DNA from: Escherichia phage F2
Sequence record: NC_054913.1
Reading direction: 5' to 3' (one strand)
DNA: 64,000 nucleotides
Shown: positions 6,841 to 60,788 of the stretch, piece by piece
How the letters are laid out: each line of letters opens with the position of its first letter
Numbering within the stretch: the first letter of the stretch is position 1
The notes under the pieces: model-generated
The model's input: only the letters and a program-made list of their open reading frames with translations
Database searches by the model: none
What the model was told of the DNA's origin: nothing
Made by a program: the position numbers and the translations under genes

Positions 6841-9800
6841 CTAAACGAACGATATAGTTAAAAGCAATGTTTTTAACCGTGTTTTCTGTATTACCTGTAC
6901 TATTTACAGTTATTGTATGTCCATGTGAACCAATTGCTACTGAATGGGTGTGAGCACCAATACCAACTGTATGGGTATGAGCACCAATACCAACAGTATG
7001 TGCGTGAGCGCCTGCGCTTGCAGCAGTACCAGATATAGAGTGCGAATGTGCCCCAGAAGAAGAAGAAGTTCCAAGCGTATTACCACCACCGGCGGATCCT
7101 CTTATAGAACCAGTACCAGGAGAGTTGTTACTTCCCGCATAAAGAGCGCTTGTGTGGCTGTGCGCACCGGCGGTGTTTGTGGAACCGCTCAAACTATGCG
7201 TATGAGCACCAGTATTATTACTGGTCTTAGTACCATAGTCGAAACTACTTGTCGTCTTAGTACCATAGTCAAAGCTTGATGTGGTTTTAGTACCTAAATC
7301 TGTGCTTGATGCACTTGCACTATGACTATGAGCCTTAACACCATCTGCCTCAGCGCTCAAAACAGCACGACCACTTGGTTTACCCTTGATAGTTTGTCCA
7401 CGCATATCAGGAATAGTACCTGTAGGATATGCGATAGCGAGCTTAGGATATGCAGACTTATCAAAAGTCTGACCTTCCATTAAAGCAAATCCAGCAGGAA
7501 CTGAATCACTTGGCCACGGAATCGGAGCACCGACTGGATAAGGTATTTGAGCATCAGAATACATCATATACACTTGACCAACAAGGTGACCAGCGGGTAA
7601 TTCTGCGACTGGGGTTTGGGGGCCTTCGTTAATTCCAACAACTGTCACGGCAGAGTTAGACGAACATTCATATTCAACTATTAACGAGTTTGAGAACGTT
7701 CCAACATATACATAAACATCGTAGGTGTCACCTGAAGTATTCATTGTAGCAATATTGGCGAAACCATTGCTGGTTCTAGCCCACATAGTGGCGTTAATAC
7801 CTTTAGGATTATTGTTGCCAGTACGAAGAACTATTTCGGTAATAGTGGCTTGTTCCGGTGAATTAGCATTAAATCCATTACCGCCAATTATTTTAAAGCT
7901 TGCTGTTCCTACAGCTTGTGGAATAGTTACTGTTGCAAATTTATACCATCCGGCGGTTGCTCCACCCTGCCAGCCGCCAGTATTAACTTTACGGTCTAAA
8001 GTAGTGTTTAAGTTAGCAAAGTTACCAGAGCCACCGGTGATATTACCGTCAGTTCCTAAAGTTGCGGCACCTGCAATAATTTTACCAGGTACGCGGAAGT
8101 CACCGGTACGACGGAATTCCCAACTTAAATCAGTTCCGGTAGTACTATTGCCCTGGTGATAATGGACGCGGAAGTCTCCTTGAGAAATTAAGGTGCCAAT
8201 AGAATAAGTGCTATCACCATTTACATACCGTTGTTTAACAATAGGAATGTATTCAGAAGTAGCAGTACGCTCTATATTCATATAAATTGGAGCCCTGACA
8301 TCTGCGTAATTCTGAGATGCAAACGAACCAGCTCCTGCTGGGCGTACCGTATCAGTACATTCGGCCTCAATATATGCAGCCTGACCTAATTGCATACGGT
8401 AATTAGGAGAAATGCGGCTATGACTAGTAACAACAACAATTTTGCTGTCATTGTCCACGGTAATCATATTGCCACCTCTGCCATCATCGCCTAACGTGAC
8501 AGAATGGCGCATTTGAACCATACCATTATTAAGGCCGATACTTAATGGGCGAAGATTACTTATTCCACCGAACCGCCCGGCATCTTTAGGAGTCGGAATA
8601 ATATGCAATGCGGCTTCTGAACGACGGAAAATAGCACCGTATTCAGCATTCCAAATTCTTAATGCATCAGCTGTTCCACCGAATTTAGCTTGACCGTTTA
8701 CAGATAATCCGCTATTAGCAACTAAACTTGATTCAGTAGCAATAGAGCCGGAAGCAGTAATACCACCGGAAGCTAATAATGCTCCAGCAATTCTAAATTG
8801 AATTGGTCCTACAGTTGAACCTGCTGCAGGAGCCGTACGTTGTGCATAAAAATAATAACCTTGGCCGTCAGCAACTTCAAACACAGTTTCACGAGATTTA
8901 TCACCAGACGTATTATTAGCAGTGCCCCATGCTTTAACAGTTACATAACTCTTATTCTGACCTGAACGAGTACCACCTTCCCACACGATTTGCTTAGTGC
9001 CGTCAATACCTGAAGCTGCTTTAAAAACTAGAGAAGCGTTGGTTCCATCACCATTAAAATATAATCCATTATTAAGCTTTAATGTTTGAACAGAAGCAAT
9101 AGTGCCATCGGCACGTAAATTTAATGAATTTGAACCAGTTTTAATATCTAAAATACCAGGCTCAATAAGAAGACCATCGCCCATACTAACAGACATGCGT
9201 CCTTGGCCACGGAAATAGTGATACATTTTAGCGTTAGAACTATAACCGATATGAGTCTGACCATCACCGTTATTATTACCATCAACATCAGTACGCGCAG
9301 TAAACATTGCCTGATTGCTATTAGGAAAATCCCATGTAGTACCAGAATCACGGCTATAACCGACCATCAATTTTTTAGTACTGTTAATACCATTGCTGTT
9401 TATTGTACCCGCAGAAATACCATTCGCAACTAAATCGATAACCCCGTCACGAACCCATTTAATACCAGTATCATTGTCACCAATTGCAATACCTTTACCA
9501 AACGAAACCAATGGATAACGTCCTTGGTCACCAACATCAGCAAGACCTATACCTATCGAATTAGCAACAGACATACGCCCATCTGTGGTATAAGACCATT
9601 GATAAACTTCAGCATTACGTCCCGTCCAATACGAAATATTCTGTGGTTTACCTGAACGAGCATCAGCAACTTCATGGAAAATAGCAGAAGAAACATGTCC
9701 GCGGAATTTACGAAGGTAGTTTATACCATTAGTATCCAAATCCGTTTCGGTTGGAGTATACTGCCAAGTAGGTAATGAAACTAAATCATATGCAGTATCA

Positions 9801-20542: not shown

Positions 20543-21500
<958 letters not shown>

Positions 21501-22717: not shown

Positions 22718-24142
22718 ATGCAAGTAACTAAGAGCAGTGGGGTATCCCAAAATTTTGATGCACAGAAAATTATTCAAGTCTTAACTTGGCAATGTGAAGG
22801 AACACAAATTGACCCATATGAATTGTACGAAGAAATTAAGACCCATCTTGTTGACGGGATGAGCACCAAAGATATCCAGAAGATTTGTATTAAAGTTGCA
22901 GCTAACTCGATTTCTGTCGAAGAACCTGATTATCAGTATGTCGCCGCCAAAGGGCTAATGTTTGCACTTCGTAAAGATGTGTATGGGCAGTTTGAACCGC
23001 CTGCTTTTATCGACCATATTTCTTACTGTGTTAATGAAGGCAAATATGACCCTGAGCTGTTGTCTCAATATTCAGCAGAAGAAATCATTTATCTCGATTC
23101 ACAGATTAAACATGAACGAGACTTTGACCTGACTTATGCTGGTGCTATGCAGCTTAAAGAAAAATATCTAGTTAAAGATAAAACAACTGGAAAGATTTAT
23201 GAAACTCCTCAGTTTGCTATCATGGCTATTGGTATGGCCTTACACCAAGACGAAACCCATGACCGTTTGAAACATATTATTCGTTTTTATGATGCCGTTT
23301 CTACTCATCAAGTTTCATTGCCAACCCCAATTATGGCGGGTGCTCGTACTCCAACTCGCCAGTTCTCTAGTTGTGTAGTTATTGAAGCAGGTGATTCGTT
23401 AAAATCTATTAACAAAACTTCAGCATCAATTATTGAATATATTTCTAAACGAGCTGGTATCGGTATCAACGTTGGTATGCTTCGTGCAGAAGGTTCTAAG
23501 ATCGGTATGGGCGAAGTTCGACATACGGGTGTTATTCCGTTCTGGAAACATTTCCAAACTGCAGTAAAATCTTGTTCTCAAGGTGGTATTCGTGGTGGTG
23601 CTGCTACAGCGTATTATCCGATGTGGCACTTAGAAGTAGAGAACCTATTAGTTCTGAAAAATAACAAAGGCGTGGATGAAAACCGTATTCGACATATGGA
23701 CTACGGAATTCAGATTAATGACCTTATGATGGAACGCCTTGGTAAAAATGATTATATTACTTTATTTAGCCCTCACGAAATGTCAGGCGAACTATACTAC
23801 TCATTCTTTGAAGATCAAGATAAATTCCGTGAGCTTTATGAGAAAGCTGAAAAAGACCCGACAATCAGAAAGAAAAGAATCAAAGCACTAGAACTCTTTG
23901 AATTGTTCATGACTGAACGTTCTGGTACTGCTCGAATTTATCCTCAGTTCGTTGATAACACTAACAACTTCACACCATTTATTCGTGAAAAAGCTCCAAT
24001 TCGTCAGAGTAACTTATGTTGTGAAATCGCTATTCCAACTAATGATGTGAATAGTCAACAAACCCGTTTAATTAAAATTAAGAAGTCGGATGTAGCTAAG
24101 TTTTATGAAGCTAATCCTGGCGGTATAATTCAAAGCAAATAA
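22718..24142 (+). CDS. nrdA: ribonucleotide reductase alpha subunit, N-terminal fragment (NrdA-a)
   Basis: 474 aa; class Ia NrdA similarity up to and including the NLCCEI active-site motif, then about 26 non-conserved residues and a stop. Confidence 0.9.
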   Translation: MQVTKSSGVSQNFDAQKIIQVLTWQCEGTQIDPYELYEEIKTHLVDGMSTKDIQKICIKVAANSISVEEPDYQYVAAKGLMFALRKDVYGQFEPPAFIDHISYCVNEGKYDPELLSQYSAEEIIYLDSQIKHERDFDLTYAGAMQLKEKYLVKDKTTGKIYETPQFAIMAIGMALHQDETHDRLKHIIRFYDAVSTHQVSLPTPIMAGARTPTRQFSSCVVIEAGDSLKSINKTSASIIEYISKRAGIGINVGMLRAEGSKIGMGEVRHTGVIPFWKHFQTAVKSCSQGGIRGGAATAYYPMWHLEVENLLVLKNNKGVDENRIRHMDYGIQINDLMMERLGKNDYITLFSPHEMSGELYYSFFEDQDKFRELYEKAEKDPTIRKKRIKALELFELFMTERSGTARIYPQFVDNTNNFTPFIREKAPIRQSNLCCEIAIPTNDVNSQQTRLIKIKKSDVAKFYEANPGGIIQSK

Positions 24143-24898
24143 AGTACACAGACCGTTAATAAATAATCCATAACAAGAGGAAAAGTTATGGATTATTCTA
24201 AAATTTACAATAACCTTATTTCTAAAGCTAAGAACAGAAAATTAGATTGCTATACCGAATCACATCATATTATACCTCTGTGTATTGGTGGTTCTGATAC
24301 AAAGGAAAACCTGGTAGATTTGACACCAGAAGAGCATTACATAGCTCATCAATTATTAGTAAAGATATATCCAGATAATCATAAATTGATATTTGCCGCT
24401 AATATGATGTGTGTTTATTCTGAAGATAATATTGAACGAAAGAACACCAATAAACGACATGGGTGGCTTAGAAGAAAATTGGCTATTTCTGTATCTGAAA
24501 ATAATAAAGGCAAACCGGCCTGGAACAAAGGTATTCCTATGTCTCCAGAAGTTAAATCTCGACTTCAAACAACTTGGGTATTTACTTTCCCGGACGGTCA
24601 TGAAGAAATCCATAAAGGCCTAAGAGAATTTTGCGAACTACATTCACTCAATGCTTCGGCAATGTCGGCCGTATGCAAAGGCAAAAGGTCTCAACATAAA
24701 GGCTTTAAGTGTCGAAAGCTTGATAATATCTCTGAAAACGATAATCAAGAATACGTCAGTAAACCTCATCCAAAGGGATTAAAACCTCATAACTTAATTG
24801 CTGTAAAAATAAACGGTATAGAATATCAATCAATACATCGAGCATCTAAAGCTTTAGGAATTACTAGAAAAAAGGTAGAAGAATTAAATGAATATTGA
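24143..24898 (+). mobile_element. free-standing HNH homing endonuclease cassette inserted within nrdA
   Basis: HNH ORF with own RBS between the two nrdA fragments. Confidence 0.75.
24188..24898 (+). CDS. HNH homing endonuclease (MobE-like)
   Basis: 236 aa; HHIIPLCIGGSDTKENLVDLTPEEHYIAH HNH motif; RBS AAGAGGAAAA. Confidence 0.8.
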   Translation: MDYSKIYNNLISKAKNRKLDCYTESHHIIPLCIGGSDTKENLVDLTPEEHYIAHQLLVKIYPDNHKLIFAANMMCVYSEDNIERKNTNKRHGWLRRKLAISVSENNKGKPAWNKGIPMSPEVKSRLQTTWVFTFPDGHEEIHKGLREFCELHSLNASAMSAVCKGKRSQHKGFKCRKLDNISENDNQEYVSKPHPKGLKPHNLIAVKINGIEYQSIHRASKALGITRKKVEELNEY

Positions 24899-25877
24899 TT
24901 ATGAATTTGTAGATGAATTTTACGAAGATGATGAGTATACAACAATACAAGTTATTGAAAACAGGGGAGAAGTGGGGCTTTGTACCCTTAGCGCATTTGT
25001 GTTAGATAACTTCGATTGGCAAGACCAAGATAAAATTAATGAACTTGCTGAAGTACAAGTACGTGCACTTGATAACCTGTTAGACTATCAAGATTATCCG
25101 GTTCCAGAAGCTTTAAAAGCTAAAAAGCGTCGTAATCTGGGTGTTGGTGTTACGAACTATGCAGCTTGGTTAGCAAGCAACTTTGCTTCTTATGAAGACG
25201 CAAACGATTTAACTCATGAACTGTTTGAGAGATTACAATATGGGCTTATCCGAGCATCAATCAAGTTGGCCGAAGAAAAAGGACCTTGCGAGTATTATTC
25301 AGACACTAAATGGTCTCGAGGCGAATTACCTATCGACTGGTACAATAAAAAGATTGACCAAATCGCAGCTCCAAACTACGTTTGTGACTGGGAAGAACTT
25401 CGAGCTGAACTCAAAGAACATGGAATTCGTAACTCAACGTTGTCTGCACTCATGCCTTGTGAGTCAAGCAGTCAAGTATCGAACTCTACAAATGGGATTG
25501 AGCCCCCACGTGGTCCAGTAAGTATTAAAGAATCTAAAGAAGGCAACTTCCGTCAGGTTGTTCCTAATATCGAACATAACGTGGGTCTTTATGACTACGC
25601 GTGGAAACTTGCTAAGAAAGGTAATAAACCTTATTTGACCCAAGTTGCTATCATGTTGAAATGGGTGTGCCAATCTGCTTCTGCTAATACTTACTATGAC
25701 CCTGCGGTATTTGAGAAAGGTAAAGTGCCAATGTCGGTAATGCTTGACGATCTGCTTTACTTCTGGTACTTTGGTGGAAAAAACCTCTACTATCATAACA
25801 CTCGTGATGGGTCAGGTACAGATGACTATGAATTAGAAACACCTAAAGCTGAAGATTGTTCTGCTTGTAAGCTTTAA
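24888..25877 (+). CDS. nrdA: ribonucleotide reductase alpha subunit, C-terminal fragment (NrdA-b)
   Basis: 329 aa; contains GLCTLSAF motif, NSTLSALMP...SNSTNGIEPP and the C-terminal CxxC tail. Confidence 0.9.
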   Translation: MNIDYEFVDEFYEDDEYTTIQVIENRGEVGLCTLSAFVLDNFDWQDQDKINELAEVQVRALDNLLDYQDYPVPEALKAKKRRNLGVGVTNYAAWLASNFASYEDANDLTHELFERLQYGLIRASIKLAEEKGPCEYYSDTKWSRGELPIDWYNKKIDQIAAPNYVCDWEELRAELKEHGIRNSTLSALMPCESSSQVSNSTNGIEPPRGPVSIKESKEGNFRQVVPNIEHNVGLYDYAWKLAKKGNKPYLTQVAIMLKWVCQSASANTYYDPAVFEKGKVPMSVMLDDLLYFWYFGGKNLYYHNTRDGSGTDDYELETPKAEDCSACKL

Positions 25878-30452: not shown

Positions 30453-31538
<1,086 letters not shown>

Positions 31539-31539
<1 letters not shown>

Positions 31540-31730
31540 TGAAACGATTATATGAAGTGATTGAGGCCATCGAACAGCATAAAGAATATTTGTTTGTAGT
31601 ATGGCCTTTAGTAAATGGACGGTTCGGTATTGATGTGCTGGACTATGAACATGAAGAATGGTTGGACGGCGGTATATTTGATAACGTCGACCAGGCAATT
31701 GAATGGTTAAATGAAAACTATGTACGATAA
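31539..31730 (+). CDS. hypothetical protein
   Basis: 63-aa ORF coupled to pseT. Confidence 0.4.
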
Positions 31731-31935
31731 ACATCATGAAATCGAAGATGAAGCATACAAAATGCTTCGTAAACTAGTGGGACTTAATATGAGTCCTACA
31801 TTAATCAACAAACTCGCAGGAATTCGTAATGATCTGAATACTCGTTACAAAGGTGAATATCATGTAGAGTTTGTTCCTGTAGGTGAACCGACCGAGCGAT
31901 TTGTTGTTCGAGTTAAAGTAAATACTGTACACTGA
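31711..31935 (+). CDS. hypothetical protein
   Basis: 74-aa ORF. Confidence 0.4.
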   Translation: MKTMYDKHHEIEDEAYKMLRKLVGLNMSPTLINKLAGIRNDLNTRYKGEYHVEFVPVGEPTERFVVRVKVNTVH

Positions 31936-31942
31936 GGTAATT

Positions 31943-32218
31943 ATGTTCCCAACTTATTCTGAAATTGTAAAGGTAGTCTTCAGTCAGATTATTGCTAATA
32001 ATATGTTTGAAGTGCTTGATAATGCAGCCGAACTCAGAGTTCATGCTCAACTAACTCATGTACTCAATGCTTTGCTCCCAGACCAAGTAGATTCTATTGC
32101 TATTACTCTTCTCCCTGGGTCTGCACACGTCATAGTGGTATTTGATCTTGACGGCGATTTAGTTATCCAATGTGATATCAATTTCGGTACACAAAAAATT
32201 GAATGCAAAGCAATTTAA
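31943..32218 (+). CDS. hypothetical protein
   Basis: 91-aa ORF with RBS GAGG. Confidence 0.4.
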   Translation: MFPTYSEIVKVVFSQIIANNMFEVLDNAAELRVHAQLTHVLNALLPDQVDSIAITLLPGSAHVIVVFDLDGDLVIQCDINFGTQKIECKAI

Positions 32219-32220
32219 TG

Positions 32221-32250
32221 GTTTACAACATGGTGGAGTTGTGATACTAT
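32221..32250 (+). promoter_or_regulatory. early promoter
   Basis: GTTTAC at 32221-32226, TACTAT at 32245-32250. Confidence 0.55.
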
Positions 32251-32278
32251 AACTCTACCAACAAATGAGGAAATAGAA

Positions 32279-32515
32279 ATGCTAAGTGAAAACCCAATTA
32301 CAGTACACGAATTTCAGATTAAAGTAAAAGAATTTGCTCAAGCACTCATCAATAAAGTGTCTGAACGTTTCCAAGATGCAACATTACGAGTTATTCAAGA
32401 ATCTCCACGTTCTTTTCTCATAATCGTTAATCCTAAAGATGGTGACCAAATTACTAATCTTAAATTAGGCAGTGATGGTCTTGTTGAAGCAACTCGAGTA
32501 TATGGAACACTATAA
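32279..32515 (+). CDS. hypothetical protein
   Basis: 78-aa ORF with RBS GAGGAAA. Confidence 0.45.
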   Translation: MLSENPITVHEFQIKVKEFAQALINKVSERFQDATLRVIQESPRSFLIIVNPKDGDQITNLKLGSDGLVEATRVYGTL

Positions 32516-32635
32516 TGAGAGCTATCTCATTACTATCGTGAATGGTCATAAATCTGAGAACTACCAACTTAGCCTGTCTAATCCGGTTAAAGGTATTGTT
32601 GAATCAGAATCTGTTTATATCTCCTAAGGATTGTT

Positions 32636-55808: not shown

Positions 55809-56816
55809 ATGTTTAAGAAATACAGCAGTCTTGAAAACCACTACAACTCTAAGTTTATTGAAAAACTCTACACTAATGGTTTGACTACTGGTGTTTGGGT
55901 AGCACGTGAGAAAATCCATGGGACCAACTTCTCGTTAATAATTGAACGTGACAACGTCACATGCGCCAAGCGCACAGGCCCTATTCTTCCAGCAGAAGAT
56001 TTTTACGGCTATGAAATCGTACTCAAGAAGTATGATAAAGCTATTAAAGGTGTTCAAGAAGTCATGGAAAGTATTTCAACTTCAGTGCCGGTGTCATATC
56101 AAGTCTTTGGTGAATTCGCCGGTGGTGGAATCCAGAAAGGTGTTGACTACGGTGAAAAAGATTTTTATGTGTTCGATATCATCATAAACACGGAAAGTGA
56201 TGATACTTATTATATGAGTGATTACGAAATGCAAGATTTCTGTAATACGTTTGGTTTTAAAATGGCACCAATGCTTGGTCGTGGAACATTTGATTCTCTT
56301 ATCATGATTCCAAATGACCTTGATTCCGTCTTAGCCGCTTATAATGCTACTGCGTCAGAAGACCTTGTAGAAGCAAATAATTGTGTATTTGATGCTAATG
56401 TTATTGGCGATAATACGGCAGAAGGTTATGTTCTGAAGCCTTGTTTCCCTAAATGGCTGCCAAACGGTACTCGTGTAGCTATTAAGTGCAAGAACTCTAA
56501 ATTCAGTGAAAAGAAAAAGTCAGATAAGCCTATTAAAACTCAGGTTCCATTATCCGAAATTGACAAAAACTTGCTTGATGTTCTAGCTTGTTATGTTACA
56601 TTAAATCGTGTTAATAATGTGATTTCTAAGATTGGGACTGTAACGCCAAAAGATTTTGGCAAAGTGATGGGATTGACTGTTCAAGATATTCTGGAAGAAA
56701 CTTCTCGTGAAGGTATTGTATTAACATCATCTGATAATCCGAATCTTGTTAAGAAAGAATTAGTCCGAATGGTGCAAGATGTTCTGCGTCCTGCATGGAT
56801 TGAATTAGTATCATAA
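55809..56816 (+). CDS. rnlB: RNA ligase 2
   Basis: 335 aa (T4 Rnl2 334); adenylation motif KIHGTNFS ([14 protein letters not shown]); [20 protein letters not shown]. Confidence 0.95.
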
Positions 56817-56820
56817 CGAA

Positions 56821-56849
56821 AAAGGGACCGTAAGGTCCCTTTGTTTTAT
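56821..56849. terminator. bidirectional terminator between rnlB and gene 24
   Basis: AAAGGGACC-GTAA-GGTCCCTTT flanked by A/T runs. Confidence 0.6.
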
Positions 56850-58129
56850 TCATCAATAATAATTTTTGGTAGCTTAACACCTAATAAAACAGACAAATCT
56901 GAACGTCCTGCCATTTTATCCATGTCCCCACCATCAATTACTCTCGCTTCTTTTTCATCTTTTGCTACTGTGTAAGGATTCGCAGATAAAGCATATCTAA
57001 CCAATAATCCGATAGATGGTTGCAAGCTTTCTGGATCAACTACGACTTTAAATGCACCGACATGTTCCGGGTCATCTAAATCTACTCCTTCAGTGTATGG
57101 AGCATAAAAGATGGACCCCACAATTTCTTTTTCGCCGATATTTTCTACAACACCCACAATAACATAATCTAACGGACTGTTGGTATCGCAGTAAAGAGGT
57201 AATCCATTTGCCAAGAATCCATAAGCATTTTGTGAAAGATACTTGTCATCTTCTGGCTTATGTTTTAACCAACCAGAAGCAGCAAGAATAGCAGCTGCAC
57301 GAGCTGAGGCTACACAAAACGTTGCAGTATAAGTTGTCTCTTTTTGAATGTGTGATACCATTTCACACACCATTCGATATAATGAACGACCTGCTTCTGG
57401 AGCGGATGCATAGCTCAAGTCAATAAATCCGGTGTCAGTAATTCCAGTAACTTTATAACGTTTCGATACAGTAATTAAAGACTGAAGAATATCTTTATTA
57501 ATTTCATCAGCCATTTCAGTAGCAAGCAAATCTTCTAAGAAGTTAGGGGCATCAAATCCATTCGCTTCCAAATCTTGCGCTAATTCAACCGTGAGGCCAG
57601 TTTTAAGTTTACGAGATTTGACTGAAGTTTGCCATTTATTAATCTGGAATCTTGCATCAGAAATTTCGCTATCAGAGCTTTCAAATTTGCTTGTTACCGC
57701 TGCATCTGAAAATAACCGTACCTTTAAATGAACGACTGCAATCTGAAGAGCTAATTCTAGATCACTTTCTTGAATATCTGCAAATGGTGTATCTTCTAAC
57801 ACTTTATAGACGATATTATTATATTTGAAAAAATCGCCTTTATTTAGTGTGACTTTTGATTCTTCTGTGAGCTCAGTAATTTTTTCTCGGTCTACATATC
57901 CAACTTCACCAGCATAAGTAGCACCAGTTTTAAATGTGAATTCGTTATCTGGGTTAAGATATTTGATACCATAAAAAGCAGCAACAGGTTGATTAGTTCT
58001 TTGTGTTGCTACAATGTCAGAATATATTAATTTAGTCGTAGCGCGAGTCAAAGCAACGAGATTTGGGCGACCGATTGAGTTGCTAGTAGACGTTGTAGAT
58101 TCACGCAATAATTTTTGGATTTTACTCAT
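56846..58129 (-). CDS. 24: gp24 head vertex protein
   Basis: 427 aa, same length as T4 gp24; capsid-fold similarity to gp23. Confidence 0.9.
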   Translation of the reverse strand: MSKIQKLLRESTTSTSNSIGRPNLVALTRATTKLIYSDIVATQRTNQPVAAFYGIKYLNPDNEFTFKTGATYAGEVGYVDREKITELTEESKVTLNKGDFFKYNNIVYKVLEDTPFADIQESDLELALQIAVVHLKVRLFSDAAVTSKFESSDSEISDARFQINKWQTSVKSRKLKTGLTVELAQDLEANGFDAPNFLEDLLATEMADEINKDILQSLITVSKRYKVTGITDTGFIDLSYASAPEAGRSLYRMVCEMVSHIQKETTYTATFCVASARAAAILAASGWLKHKPEDDKYLSQNAYGFLANGLPLYCDTNSPLDYVIVGVVENIGEKEIVGSIFYAPYTEGVDLDDPEHVGAFKVVVDPESLQPSIGLLVRYALSANPYTVAKDEKEARVIDGGDMDKMAGRSDLSVLLGVKLPKIIIDE

Positions 58130-58159
58130 TGCATTTTTTCCTTATTGAGAATATAATTT

Positions 58160-58167
58160 TATTTATA
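58160..58167 (-). promoter_or_regulatory. late promoter TATAAATA for gene 24
   Basis: TATTTATA on plus strand, about 31 bp upstream of the gene 24 start. Confidence 0.55.
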
Positions 58168-58173
58168 AAAGTG

Positions 58174-58203
58174 GTTTACACACAAAAAGTGTTGTGTTAC
58201 TAT
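58174..58203 (+). promoter_or_regulatory. early promoter
   Basis: GTTTAC at 58174-58179, TACTAT at 58198-58203. Confidence 0.55.
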
Positions 58204-58232
58204 AGACCTATCAAAACATGAGGAGATTAAAA

Positions 58233-58499
58233 ATGAACAAATTAAACTTTATCCGTACCACACTTTCTAACCTTGACAAAGACATCAAAGCTCTGGTAGA
58301 AAAATTTGGTACCAATCCTAATGGTAATGCAGTTAATGCATTGGTTAAGAAATACGAAGCCCTGGCTTATGAAACTGACTTCTGGTGGAACGGTGAATAT
58401 TCTACCCATACCAAAGACAAATCTGGTAACTGGCTGAAAATCCAAGAAAATCGTATTGACTTCCGTGATATCATCAACCGTCGTGTCAAAGCAGCGTAA
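58233..58499 (+). CDS. hypothetical protein
   Basis: ATG at 58233 after AGGAG RBS (88 aa); the track ORF starts 15 nt upstream. Confidence 0.45.
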   Translation: MNKLNFIRTTLSNLDKDIKALVEKFGTNPNGNAVNALVKKYEALAYETDFWWNGEYSTHTKDKSGNWLKIQENRIDFRDIINRRVKAA

Positions 58500-58502
58500 A
58501 TT

Positions 58503-59162
58503 ATGAATTATTTAATTTACAAAATAACCAATCTCATTAATAACAAGATTTATATTGGAGCCCATGCCACTACAGATGTTAACGATTCTTATATGGGTTC
58601 CGGGGTTAACATAGTAAAATCCATAAAGAAATACGGCTTAGAGAATTTTAAAAAGGAAATCCTTTTCAATTTCGAAACATCTGAAGAGATGTATGCTAAG
58701 GAAGCCGAACTAGTTGACGAGGCTTTTGTCATGAGAACAGATACTTATAATGCCGCCTTAGGCGGCAAGGGTAATCCTGTTATAGTAGCTTTACAGGAAC
58801 CTGGGTATCGTGAGATGTTATCCGAAAAGACAAAAGCTGGTATGACTGAAGAAGTTCGGGCCAAAATATCTAAAAAGAAATTAGGTTCTAAAGAATCTAA
58901 AGAACATCGAGAAAACAAATCTATATCAAATAAAAAGTTTTATAAAAATAGAGATTCTCATCTTAAAGGTAGAAAACTATCAGAAGAGCATAAAGCAAAA
59001 ATTAGAAAGAATTCTAATAAAGGTAAGAAATTTGTATTTGTGGATATTTCTATTAAAGGTCATGAATTTAACCACTACGATTACGCTGCCGAATTCTTTA
59101 ACGTATCCGCAAAAACTATAAGAAATTGGATTAATGAACGCGATGATTGTTTTAAGCTATAG
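58503..59162 (+). CDS. GIY-YIG homing endonuclease (Seg-like)
   Basis: 219 aa; N-terminal IYKITNLINNKIYIG...YMGSG GIY-YIG motifs, basic C-terminal DNA-binding region; inserted between capsid genes 24 and 23. Confidence 0.8.
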   Translation: MNYLIYKITNLINNKIYIGAHATTDVNDSYMGSGVNIVKSIKKYGLENFKKEILFNFETSEEMYAKEAELVDEAFVMRTDTYNAALGGKGNPVIVALQEPGYREMLSEKTKAGMTEEVRAKISKKKLGSKESKEHRENKSISNKKFYKNRDSHLKGRKLSEEHKAKIRKNSNKGKKFVFVDISIKGHEFNHYDYAAEFFNVSAKTIRNWINERDDCFKL

Positions 59163-59190
59163 AAACAAGAATGGGAGACCGGAGTCTCCC
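59161..59190 (-). terminator. terminator after gene 23
   Basis: GGGAGAC-(CCGG loop)-GTCTCCC hairpin followed by AUUCUUGUUUCU on the minus-strand transcript. Confidence 0.55.
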
Positions 59191-59219
59191 ATAAGGTTAT
59201 GTATTTTAACGTTAAAGCA

Positions 59220-60788
59220 TTAAATTCCTTTAACGTAGACGCGTCTAAAGTAAGCGTTCTTACCAAGGCTGTTCAGGATAGACGGCATACCGGACTGGAT
59301 GCGAGCACCTGGAGCCTGCAGGGAACTTTCAGCAAACGGGTTAACACCGATACCGTAACGAGTTTTAAAGCCCATTACTGGCTGGAAGTTCTTAGGATCG
59401 GAACCACGTAGTGGGGTAAGTGCAACGTAAGGAGCATAGTAAATACCTGCATCCATTTCGTTAGCGCCTTTGTAACCAACGGTGAAGTAATCCTGTTTAG
59501 CATACTGGTCGATGTATACTCGGTATTTACCACCAAGTACACCGGCAAATACAGATTTAGTAGTGTCGGTATTAAAACCAGAAGCCAGACCCTGTGCAGC
59601 ATAAGAAATACCAGTATCAACTGAAGCCAGTACGTTAACTACGTTACGGGAAGCGATAATGAAGTTACCTTCACCACGACCGGTTTGACGAGCAATTTCA
59701 ACTGCTTCTTTATCAATCTGGAACAACAGAGCTTTAAAGCTTTCACCGGCCCAACGAGCACCACGGATATCAATCGGGTCCTGGAAGTCAAATACACCAG
59801 CTTTAGAACCAACGATATTAGTCATACCAGATTTACCAACCTGAGCGGAGTAGTTAATCCAGTCAACAACTTCACGGTTGATTTCCAGCATAATTTCAGT
59901 GGCAAGAATACCGCTCAGTTCAGCATCAGCATCCATACCGTGTACTGCACGGAGGTCTTGTGCCAATTCGATGGAGTAAGCTGCTTTCAGCTGACGAGAT
60001 TTAGCTTCAATAACTTGTTTGTCGATACGGAAGCCCATTTCGTTCCACGGGTTGTCGGTAGAACCATTGAAGCCTTCCTGAAGTTCAGCGATAGAAGTAG
60101 CCATACCTTCAGCGATTTCTACCAGTACACCAGCTTCCATTTGTTTCTTAATTTCAGCATCCAGTTTAGTTGCATCGGTAGCGCCAGCATCGATTGTTAC
60201 TACAGCGGAAGCTTGTAGATACACAGTACCAGTTTCCTGGAAGAAGTGAGTATAGATATCACCTACAACGGTTTGTGTGCTAGCAGCCAGAGCTGGGAAT
60301 TTCTTAGCAGCACCCTGACCAGAGAACATCGCGTCTGGAGCATACATCGGATGGAAAGCTTCTTTAGCGTCAGCAGCGATAGGGTCTTTACCATATACTG
60401 CACGGAGAGCAAATACCTGACCGGTAGGGCTGTTCATAGGCTGAACACCACAAATATCGAAAGCGATCAGATTAGGAATAGCACGACGAACCATACCCAT
60501 AACTGCCGGCCCAATCTGGGTTACTGCACCAGAGGTTTGACCTGCTGCGATGTTCTGAGCATTATAACCATGGTCGCCACCAATTTCAGCTTCGGTCAAG
60601 AAAGAACCAAATGCCTGAGCGATTTTCTCGTCTTTATATTCAGGGGATACTTCGAAATCTTTTTCCTGGTTTTCGAAGATTTTAGCGATAATAGCCTGCT
60701 TGCTATTAGCGATTTCCGGCAGGCCTTCACCTTCCAGCAGTTCTTTCCATTTGTCTACGAGCTGAGCTTTAGTTTTGATAGTAGTCAT
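59220..60788 (-). CDS. 23: gp23 major capsid protein
   Basis: 522 aa (T4 gp23 521); recognised as T4 gp23-like along its length. Confidence 0.97.
   Translation of the reverse strand: MTTIKTKAQLVDKWKELLEGEGLPEIANSKQAIIAKIFENQEKDFEVSPEYKDEKIAQAFGSFLTEAEIGGDHGYNAQNIAAGQTSGAVTQIGPAVMGMVRRAIPNLIAFDICGVQPMNSPTGQVFALRAVYGKDPIAADAKEAFHPMYAPDAMFSGQGAAKKFPALAASTQTVVGDIYTHFFQETGTVYLQASAVVTIDAGATDATKLDAEIKKQMEAGVLVEIAEGMATSIAELQEGFNGSTDNPWNEMGFRIDKQVIEAKSRQLKAAYSIELAQDLRAVHGMDADAELSGILATEIMLEINREVVDWINYSAQVGKSGMTNIVGSKAGVFDFQDPIDIRGARWAGESFKALLFQIDKEAVEIARQTGRGEGNFIIASRNVVNVLASVDTGISYAAQGLASGFNTDTTKSVFAGVLGGKYRVYIDQYAKQDYFTVGYKGANEMDAGIYYAPYVALTPLRGSDPKNFQPVMGFKTRYGIGVNPFAESSLQAPGARIQSGMPSILNSLGKNAYFRRVYVKGI

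Follow-up and report, generated by a model that had tools for sequence, protein, structure and literature searches.

What is the pair of plus-strand reading frames that separates the minus-strand capsid genes 24 and 23 of Escherichia phage F2, and how much of it is an insert? The initial annotation of the window, i.e. of the whole 64,000-nucleotide stretch of sequence record NC_054913.1 analysed here, had described both frames as one homing endonuclease cassette that possesses its own early promoter and is bounded by terminators. The two frames, of 88 and 219 amino acids (orf88 and seg in the following), are indeed located where that annotation had placed them (Table 1), and its additional remark that an HNH endonuclease is present in nrdA is correct. 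Over positions 58100-59260 the window has the sequence of Escherichia phage vB_EcoM_JQD51 (100% identity), and a set of RB69-like phages (Mosigvirus) agrees with it at 96-99.8%. The gene 24 product is annotated as capsid vertex protein in phages SQ17, MX01 and PNJ-9.

Table 1. Features of the gene 24/23 locus (coordinates of the window).
Feature	Position	Strand	Remarks
Gene 24 (capsid vertex protein), left flank	56846-58129	minus	427-aa ORF; backbone gene, outside the element
Motif TATAAATA, which we take to be the T4-type late promoter of gene 24	58160-58167	minus	Exact motif, 30 nt upstream of the gene 24 ATG
Early-type promoter candidate	58175-58203	plus	TTTACA-17-TACTAT, extended -10 TG
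orf88	58233-58499	plus	88-aa ORF; resident small gene upstream of seg
Left junction	58482-58502	plus	End of orf88 (6 codons and stop, recoded in seg+ alleles) and the 3 nt that separate it from the seg ATG
seg (segD-like gene)	58503-59162	plus	219-aa ORF; indel proper in comparison to SQ17, MX01 and C6
Predicted GIY-YIG catalytic domain	58503-58787	plus	seg residues 1-95; motifs, I-TevI alignment, Foldseek
Predicted basic helical linker, NUMOD3-like repeats	58788-59042	plus	seg residues 96-180; K+R content, weak NUMOD3 match, helices in the model
Predicted C-terminal helix-turn-helix DNA-binding domain	59043-59159	plus	seg residues 181-219; HTH_17, Foldseek
Hairpin ATGGGAGAC-TCCG-GTCTCCCAT, intrinsic terminator of gene 23	59171-59192	minus	T-run on the minus strand only
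Gene 23 (major capsid protein), right flank	59220-60788	minus	522-aa ORF; annotated in relatives; backbone gene

A predicted GIY-YIG endonuclease of the SegD type

The proposal that seg is a free-standing GIY-YIG endonuclease gene of the Seg type is well supported. The protein matches PHROG 314 ('homing endonuclease') with an E-value of 5.4e-54, and T4 SegD, which is encoded at the same locus, is the closest of the T4 Seg proteins (59% identity over the full length, E 3e-88); a tblastn search with the seg product likewise has its best place in T4 at segD (58.8% identity, 100% coverage). The initial annotation had made its assignment dependent on a match to a GIY-YIG profile, and here the outcome is divided. 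The NCBIfam model for I-TevI-type proteins, TIGR01453, was matched with 56.5 bits at a curated cutoff of 56.05, a small margin, by residues 5-214 of the protein (positions 4-205 of the 215 positions of the profile), whereas both Pfam models narrowly missed their gathering scores (PF19835, 23.1 bits vs 25; PF01541, 15.9 bits vs 22.6). Several close homologues do have PF01541 or PF19835 assignments.

The N-terminal motifs that had been noticed before, IYKITNLINNKIYIG and YMGSG, are present at residues 5-19 and 30-34, respectively. In an alignment of 50 homologues the residues Y6, Y17, G19, E67 and N83 are invariant; Y6 is part of IYKI, and Y17 and G19 are part of IYIG, the forms in which the GIY and YIG motifs appear in this protein. 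In I-TevI, E75 is the metal-binding glutamate and N90 a conserved asparagine. In a profile-to-PDB alignment Y6, Y17, E67 and N83 fall on Y6, Y17, E75 and N90 of I-TevI. I-TevI R27 falls in an insertion and has no aligned column in the seg profile alignment; in its region the SegD clade features invariant H21, D28, Y30, G32 and G34 instead.

A phmmer search of the PDB with the single sequence yielded a chance match to a ribosomal protein only, and with the 50-sequence profile the I-TevI catalytic domain alone was found, at a marginal E-value of 0.014. The AlphaFold (AF2) model of the protein has a mean pLDDT of 86 (≈84-97 per 10-residue block for residues 1-90). A Foldseek comparison of this model with the PDB gave four meaningful matches, all of them to I-TevI and all with a probability of 1.00: three chains of the catalytic domain from two entries (1MK0 and 1LN0) and the DNA-binding domain 1I3J, of which chain A was matched by the C-terminal domain of the seg protein. 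The best match, 1MK0, has a target-normalised TM-score of 0.66 and an rmsd of 3.1 Å over 96 columns. An HTH_17 motif was detected at residues 195-213 (E 0.008), and a weak NUMOD3 match (E 0.063) was found in the linker, where the model contains helices. The basic character that had been ascribed to the C-terminal part was also seen, with 26 lysine and arginine residues within residues 96-180 (85 residues, middle third and C-terminal part of the protein). The G+C content of seg is 32.4%, compared to 37.8% for the window. We predict from sequence and model that the 219-aa ORF encodes an I-TevI-like endonuclease in which a basic NUMOD3-like linker joins a catalytic domain at the N-terminus to a helix-turn-helix at the C-terminus. 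The gene is an ordinary, previously known representative of the SegD type, and public records already list it: near-identical genes carry the annotation 'SegD homing endonuclease' in phages PNJ-9, JM10 and IME08.

Boundaries of the insert and expression of seg

Relatives without the insert delimit what has been added at this locus. The Mosigvirus SQ17 does not contain seg; in all other parts of the locus, from gene 24 via the promoter region, orf88 and the hairpin to gene 23, it agrees with the window at 99-100% identity, and the stretch that it lacks is exactly 58482-59155. The same empty arrangement with clean junctions is found in the Dhakaviruses MX01 and C6; in all three seg-free phages the promoter, orf88 and the hairpin are kept at 97-100% identity. 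The indel thus consists of the seg ORF alone, and the inclusion of the 88-aa ORF in the insert has to be abandoned. At the left junction the window reads CGTCGTGTCAAAGCAGCGTAA where the seg-free phages read CGCCGAGTTAAGATTGCATAG, inside otherwise 99-100% identical sequence. In seg-free phages orf88 ends with CGC CGA GTT AAG ATT GCA TAG TAT AG/AAACAAG, and in the window it ends with CGT CGT GTC AAA GCA GCG TAA ATT, followed by the ATG of seg, the 3' end of which reads CTA TAG/AAACAAG (the slash marks the start of the shared right-hand sequence). The insertion divides the seg-free sequence into CGAGTTAAG/ATTGCATAG/TATAGAAAC, and the neighbouring codons are recoded. In all six seg+ alleles examined the tail of orf88 is altered (KAA, KAE or KVEA in place of KIA); the seg ORF is intact in each of them and has a length of 219-223 aa.

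Universal presence of the ORF at this locus had been named as an argument against mobility. What we find is an optional gene with sporadic occurrence: orf88 is present in 118 phage records, ≈36 of which carry seg and about 80 of which do not. At an identity of at least 80% seg was detected in 36 records, and a combined query of orf88 and seg was covered in 36 records. The contiguous empty junction is common among Dhakaviruses. A comparable situation exists in the genus of T4, where the T4-type segD region is present in 53 records and many others (including T2, RB3 and RB9) match the flanks only. This distribution would be that of a mobile gene.

The mechanical ORF of orf88 starts at 58218; the ATG at 58233 was chosen as start codon, with a strong Shine-Dalgarno sequence (GAGGAG, 58221-58226) 7 nt upstream, and the PHROG profile begins at the same ATG. 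The protein belongs to phrog_6003 (1.5e-48), a PHROG family of unknown function, and has no match in Pfam or NCBIfam. A word-indexed search among 5.8 billion proteins resulted in 7 clusters and an exhaustive HMMER search in 7 matches; two large HMMER matches, to Big_6 and YadA repeat adhesins, were judged to be compositional. In the AF2 model (pLDDT 75) two helices, a β-hairpin and a C-terminal helix are predicted, for which Foldseek gave nothing below an E-value of 0.6. Alignments of orf88 by tblastn ended at residue 72 in seg-free phages; the proteins are identical through residue 86, and we consider this end an artefact. The family is narrow and confined to T-even coliphages. By its conservation in seg-free genomes orf88 is to be regarded as a resident phage gene and not as part of the insert, and its position and type of promoter suggest an early accessory protein.

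How could seg be expressed? On the plus strand, orf88 and seg are preceded by a single σ70/T4-early-like site (TTTACA-17-TACTAT, with TG upstream). The number of such patterns is not above chance (3 sites vs 5.1 expected in shuffles); the position of the site is conserved in SQ17, RB69, VR7 and T4 (TTTACA-17-TATTAT in T4). Neither a late promoter motif (TATAAATA) nor a MotA box was found on the plus strand between 58100 and 59260, including the inside of orf88. Since the site precedes orf88 and is retained without seg, we assign this putative promoter to orf88; the element that had been described as the insert's own is thus present at 58175-58203 but has a different owner. No Shine-Dalgarno sequence is present in front of seg, and its ATG follows the TAA stop codon of orf88 after 3 nt. 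Without a promoter or ribosome-binding site of its own, and with its start so close behind the orf88 stop, seg probably depends on orf88 for its expression. We assume that it is co-transcribed with orf88 and weakly translated through coupling. An RNA structure masking the seg start was not significant (z -1.5). Terminators on both sides had also been claimed. One terminator-like hairpin was found on the right (59171-59192) and none on the left, and the T-run on the minus strand identifies this hairpin as the terminator of gene 23. The hairpin is conserved in seg-free relatives and has a counterpart in T4 and T2; it probably also ends the plus-strand transcript of orf88 and seg.

Exchange between genera and the question of homing

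The environment of seg is strongly mosaic. In a sliding-window comparison of the window, which has a Mosigvirus backbone, with its relatives, gene 24 is only 55-85% identical to the Dhakaviruses and most of gene 23 is 70-90% identical. Between them, positions 58136-59253 are, the insert aside, ≈98% identical to MX01, C6 and 04086. The edges of this tract are located just upstream of the gene 24 start (58136) and within gene 23, 34 nt from its 3' end (59253). The seg-carrying Dhakavirus UP19 is identical to the window over 58927-59253 and diverges abruptly thereafter. Exchange is also visible within seg itself: IME08 and 04086 share the catalytic, N-terminal half with the window (93-100% per 60-nt window of comparison) but have a different linker and DNA-binding half (57-88%), with 57-82% per 60-nt window in the C-terminal DNA-binding domain and ≈70-72% for this segment. 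The C-terminal DNA-binding domain thus occurs in two sequence variants among the relatives. Two alleles also exist for the promoter region (58146-58208), and these do not follow the genus.

As judged from these comparisons, the 24/23 intergenic block is a module that recombines and is sharply delimited at the capsid genes. Limits of this kind fit the boundaries that are known for nuclease-associated exchange in phages (PMC10448857). However, the tract of high identity is present equally in seg-free genomes, so that the exchange neither requires nor proves a drive by the nuclease. The patchy distribution together with a near-identical block between divergent capsid genes indicates that co-infecting T-even phages exchange seg and the sequence around it by recombination.

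We therefore regard seg, with good confidence, as the Mosigvirus/Dhakavirus equivalent of T4 segD: an optional selfish passenger behind the stop codon of orf88 that would be expressed via orf88 and spread by recombination among co-infecting T-even phages. Situated antisense between genes 24 and 23 and directly past the orf88 stop, seg would most likely be transcribed from the conserved early-type promoter of orf88, and its low-level translation would come from ribosomes that re-initiate after the orf88 stop. The endonuclease might then introduce a double-strand break into a seg-free genome at or near the junction of the orf88 stop and the hairpin (classical homing would place the break near CGAGTTAAGATTGCATAGTATAGAAAC in seg- DNA), and the break would be repaired from a seg-bearing genome. 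Spread of seg among co-infecting T-even phages, past or ongoing, could be achieved by break-induced or by ordinary recombination. By its insertion at the orf88 stop seg both interrupts and recodes the seg-free sequence, a layout compatible with self-immunity of the seg+ genome.

Other explanations of the locus have to be weighed against this proposal. The name of TIGR01453 ('group I intron endonuclease') and the annotation of the homologue in KAW3E185 as group I intron endonuclease could be taken to mean that the ORF is intron-encoded and resides inside a group I intron. This reading is effectively refuted and has next to no probability: neither an intron nor any other RNA family of Rfam was detected at E≤1 between 56500 and 61000 (a sub-threshold match to MicX at 56810-56919 was judged to be due to chance), the ORF occupies a spacer between genes, none of which it interrupts, and the empty allele has no exon junction. 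Insertion of promoter, orf88 and seg as one piece, the mobile unit of the initial annotation, finds some support in Tequatroviruses of the T2 type. Their 24/23 spacer comprises 83 nt with the late promoter of gene 24, the hairpin of gene 23 and nothing else, i.e. neither an early promoter nor an ORF; we read it from the sequence and the CDS coordinates, as MAFFT had misplaced the left flank of T2. In comparison to this type T4 has promoter and segD as one indel, and the block 58136-59253 is ≈98% identical across genera with divergent flanks. The parts nevertheless assort independently: promoter and orf88 persist without seg at 99-100% identity in SQ17, a member of the window's own lineage, and about 80 of the 118 orf88 genomes are of this kind, T4 has a seg gene without orf88, and in RB69 other small ORFs accompany the promoter. 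We consider a cassette that moves as a whole decidedly unlikely.

More weight has to be given to the possibility that the nuclease, although of the SegD family, no longer homes, and that the patchiness results from repeated deletion from an ancestral seg+ locus and from ordinary homologous recombination. According to a passage in PMC9523250 that cites Sokolov et al. 2018, T4 SegD starts neither homing nor recombination at its site. In addition, the 14-nt filler of the seg-free alleles, ATTGCATAGTATAG, is similar to the end of seg on its 3' side (GATTGC...TATAG). It starts with ATTGC, which together with the G of the preceding AAG reproduces GATTGC, the GAT TGC codons of the Asp-Cys pair that is conserved at the C-terminus of SegD-clade proteins, and this GATTGC is located at an equivalent distance from the shared TATAG-AAACAAG. 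The 'empty' allele may thus be a deletion scar that documents loss rather than gain of the gene, and not a naive target; a match of 5-6 nt that was noticed post hoc is suggestive in this respect. This resemblance and the negative report on T4 SegD are our reasons to use the term homing with caution, and the equal conservation of the intergenic block in seg-free genomes points in the same direction. On the other side, the intact ORF in all six seg+ alleles and the invariant catalytic residues argue for continuing selection on activity, a 327-nt tract (3' half of seg and hairpin) that is identical in a Mosigvirus and a Dhakavirus argues for a recent transfer of seg DNA, and the short post hoc match limits what can be read from the scar. 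Taken together, we regard the loss of homing as a serious alternative, though less probable than a spreading passenger. A combined version goes further: the SegD lineage would not home in the classical sense, the empty allele would be a scar in which the 3' end of seg served to restore the last codons of orf88, and the 24/23 block would be a hot spot of recombination between genera, with SegD, if it contributes, acting on a cleavage site common to seg+ and seg- genomes, or with orf88 as its translationally coupled partner or modulator. We regard this combination as unlikely.

With seg as an optional passenger, the present results confirm that SegD-type endonuclease genes recurrently land in the 23/24 spacer of T-even phages, give exact indel boundaries for the RB69-like and JS98-like groups, and describe an intergenic block that is exchanged between genera with diverged capsid genes. 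JQD51 and SQ17, which are near-identical elsewhere, represent a convenient natural seg+/seg- pair for studies of homing in the SegD lineage. Beyond correct annotation the finding is of little importance; the gene has already been annotated in near-identical phages.

Comparison with known phage endonucleases

The closest known system is segD of T4. It occupies the same locus between genes 23 and 24 in the same antisense orientation, its product has the same three-part architecture, an early-type promoter is present upstream at the equivalent position, and the terminator hairpin of gene 23 follows immediately downstream, as is the case here. Each of the two genes is sporadic within its own genus. 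The differences concern the leader and the target. T4 lacks orf88, and segD is located directly behind the promoter with a GGAG of its own, whereas seg is located behind orf88 and has no Shine-Dalgarno sequence. T4 SegD, annotated with 223 aa in comparison to 219 aa here, differs from the seg protein in the C-terminal DNA-binding region, so that the target may be different. T4 SegD has been purified and studied; the seg protein is known from sequence and model.

I-TevI, the endonuclease of the td intron of T4 and prototype of TIGR01453, has the same catalytic fold as is predicted for the seg protein, the same Tyr/Tyr/Glu/Asn set and a corresponding DNA-binding domain. The identity between the two proteins amounts to only ≈22-25%, seg is not intron-encoded, its linker is longer and more basic, and Arg27 of I-TevI has no aligned equivalent.

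The other T4 seg genes, segA, segB, segC, segE, segF and segG, for which homing has been demonstrated, resemble seg as free-standing GIY-YIG genes of low G+C content and patchy distribution between conserved genes, and there, as here, the neighbouring sequence is mosaic among relatives (PMC2988022). These six genes have the same orientation as their neighbours and are served by middle or late promoters (PMC2988022). In contrast, seg runs antisense to the late genes, and the sole promoter candidate upstream of it is of the early type. In the 2010 review of T4 mobile elements segD is described as the sole endonuclease gene of T4 that is antisense to its neighbours, it was uncharacterised at that time and its promoter was not identified, and no endonuclease-specific promoter in T4 belongs to the early class (PMC2988022). 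Set against that account, the early-type element that is conserved both here and in T4 merits transcript mapping.

Variants of seg and alleles of the 24/23 locus

The SegD-type GIY-YIG endonuclease gene between genes 24 and 23 (seg) occurs in two variants. Their catalytic half is shared, with 93-100% nucleotide identity per 60-nt window between the window and phages IME08 and 04086, and their linker and helix-turn-helix half (window 58820-59160) is divergent, with 57-88% identity and a length difference of 4 codons. This combination suggests domain swapping and, perhaps, a different target specificity. In RB69, the type Mosigvirus, the early-type promoter and the hairpin are kept at this locus. 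The 88-aa ORF that directly precedes seg in the window is replaced there by divergent sequence (RB69 9211-9633), annotated as two tiny ORFs of 41 and 29 aa, an arrangement that is a further allele of the locus and that appears to be present also in AV113, LF82-41 and a20. Gene 24 is a single copy in the window; adjoining the locus in IME08, UP19 and VR7 (Dhakavirus and Gaprivervirus), it is found as two tandem copies, 24a and 24b. The GenBank record of JQD51 (PV204681.1), which matches the window, has its product names displaced by one CDS across the whole locus. The label 'RNA ligase' stands on gene 24, 'capsid vertex protein' on the 88-aa ORF, 'hypothetical protein' on seg and 'homing endonuclease' on gene 23.

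A candidate promoter for segD

According to a 2010 review (PMC2988022), a segD-specific promoter could not be identified. Just upstream of segD on the minus strand of T4 (2754-2782) we found a good match to an early-type promoter, TTTACA-17-TATTAT with TG (10/12), and this candidate is positionally homologous to the early-type match of the window at 58175-58203. The promoter region (window 58146-58208) comes in two allelic forms, separated by about 24 differences in 60 nt. One is common to the window, SQ17, MX01, C6 and 04086 and the other to ATK47, LF82-1, UP19 and IME08; these alleles track neither genus nor seg status.

Further endonucleases and the split nrdA

Just past pseT, the close relative PNJ-9 carries a second gene labelled 'SegD homing endonuclease' (PNJ-9 30658-31380), whereas the counterpart of this site in the window (about 31540-32630) is without an ORF of at least 100 aa. 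This gene is another presence/absence difference of an endonuclease between near-identical phages. The dihydrofolate reductase ORF of the window (205 aa, region 20546-21500) matches the Pfam DHFR profile at positions 13-122 of 159 only; in PNJ-9, frd is annotated with 195 aa and td follows directly.

Features of the nrdA and dihydrofolate reductase regions (window positions)
Feature	Position	Remark
115-aa ORF	21153-21500	PHROG 1928, function unknown; overlaps end of dihydrofolate reductase ORF
nrdA, whole span	22718-25877	two parts
nrdA piece 1	22718-24142	ATP-cone, all-alpha domain, barrel positions 1-221
HNH/I-HmuI-type homing endonuclease ORF, 236 aa	24188-24898	between nrdA pieces
nrdA piece 2	24888-25877	barrel positions 220-523

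The ORF that splits nrdA matches PHROG 655 (7.6e-59) and PF22083 (7.7e-8). Since nrdA is unbroken in PNJ-9, the split is polymorphic. The window thus has a polymorphic 'gene-in-pieces' ribonucleotide reductase, a type that Aeromonas phage Aeh1 is known to possess.
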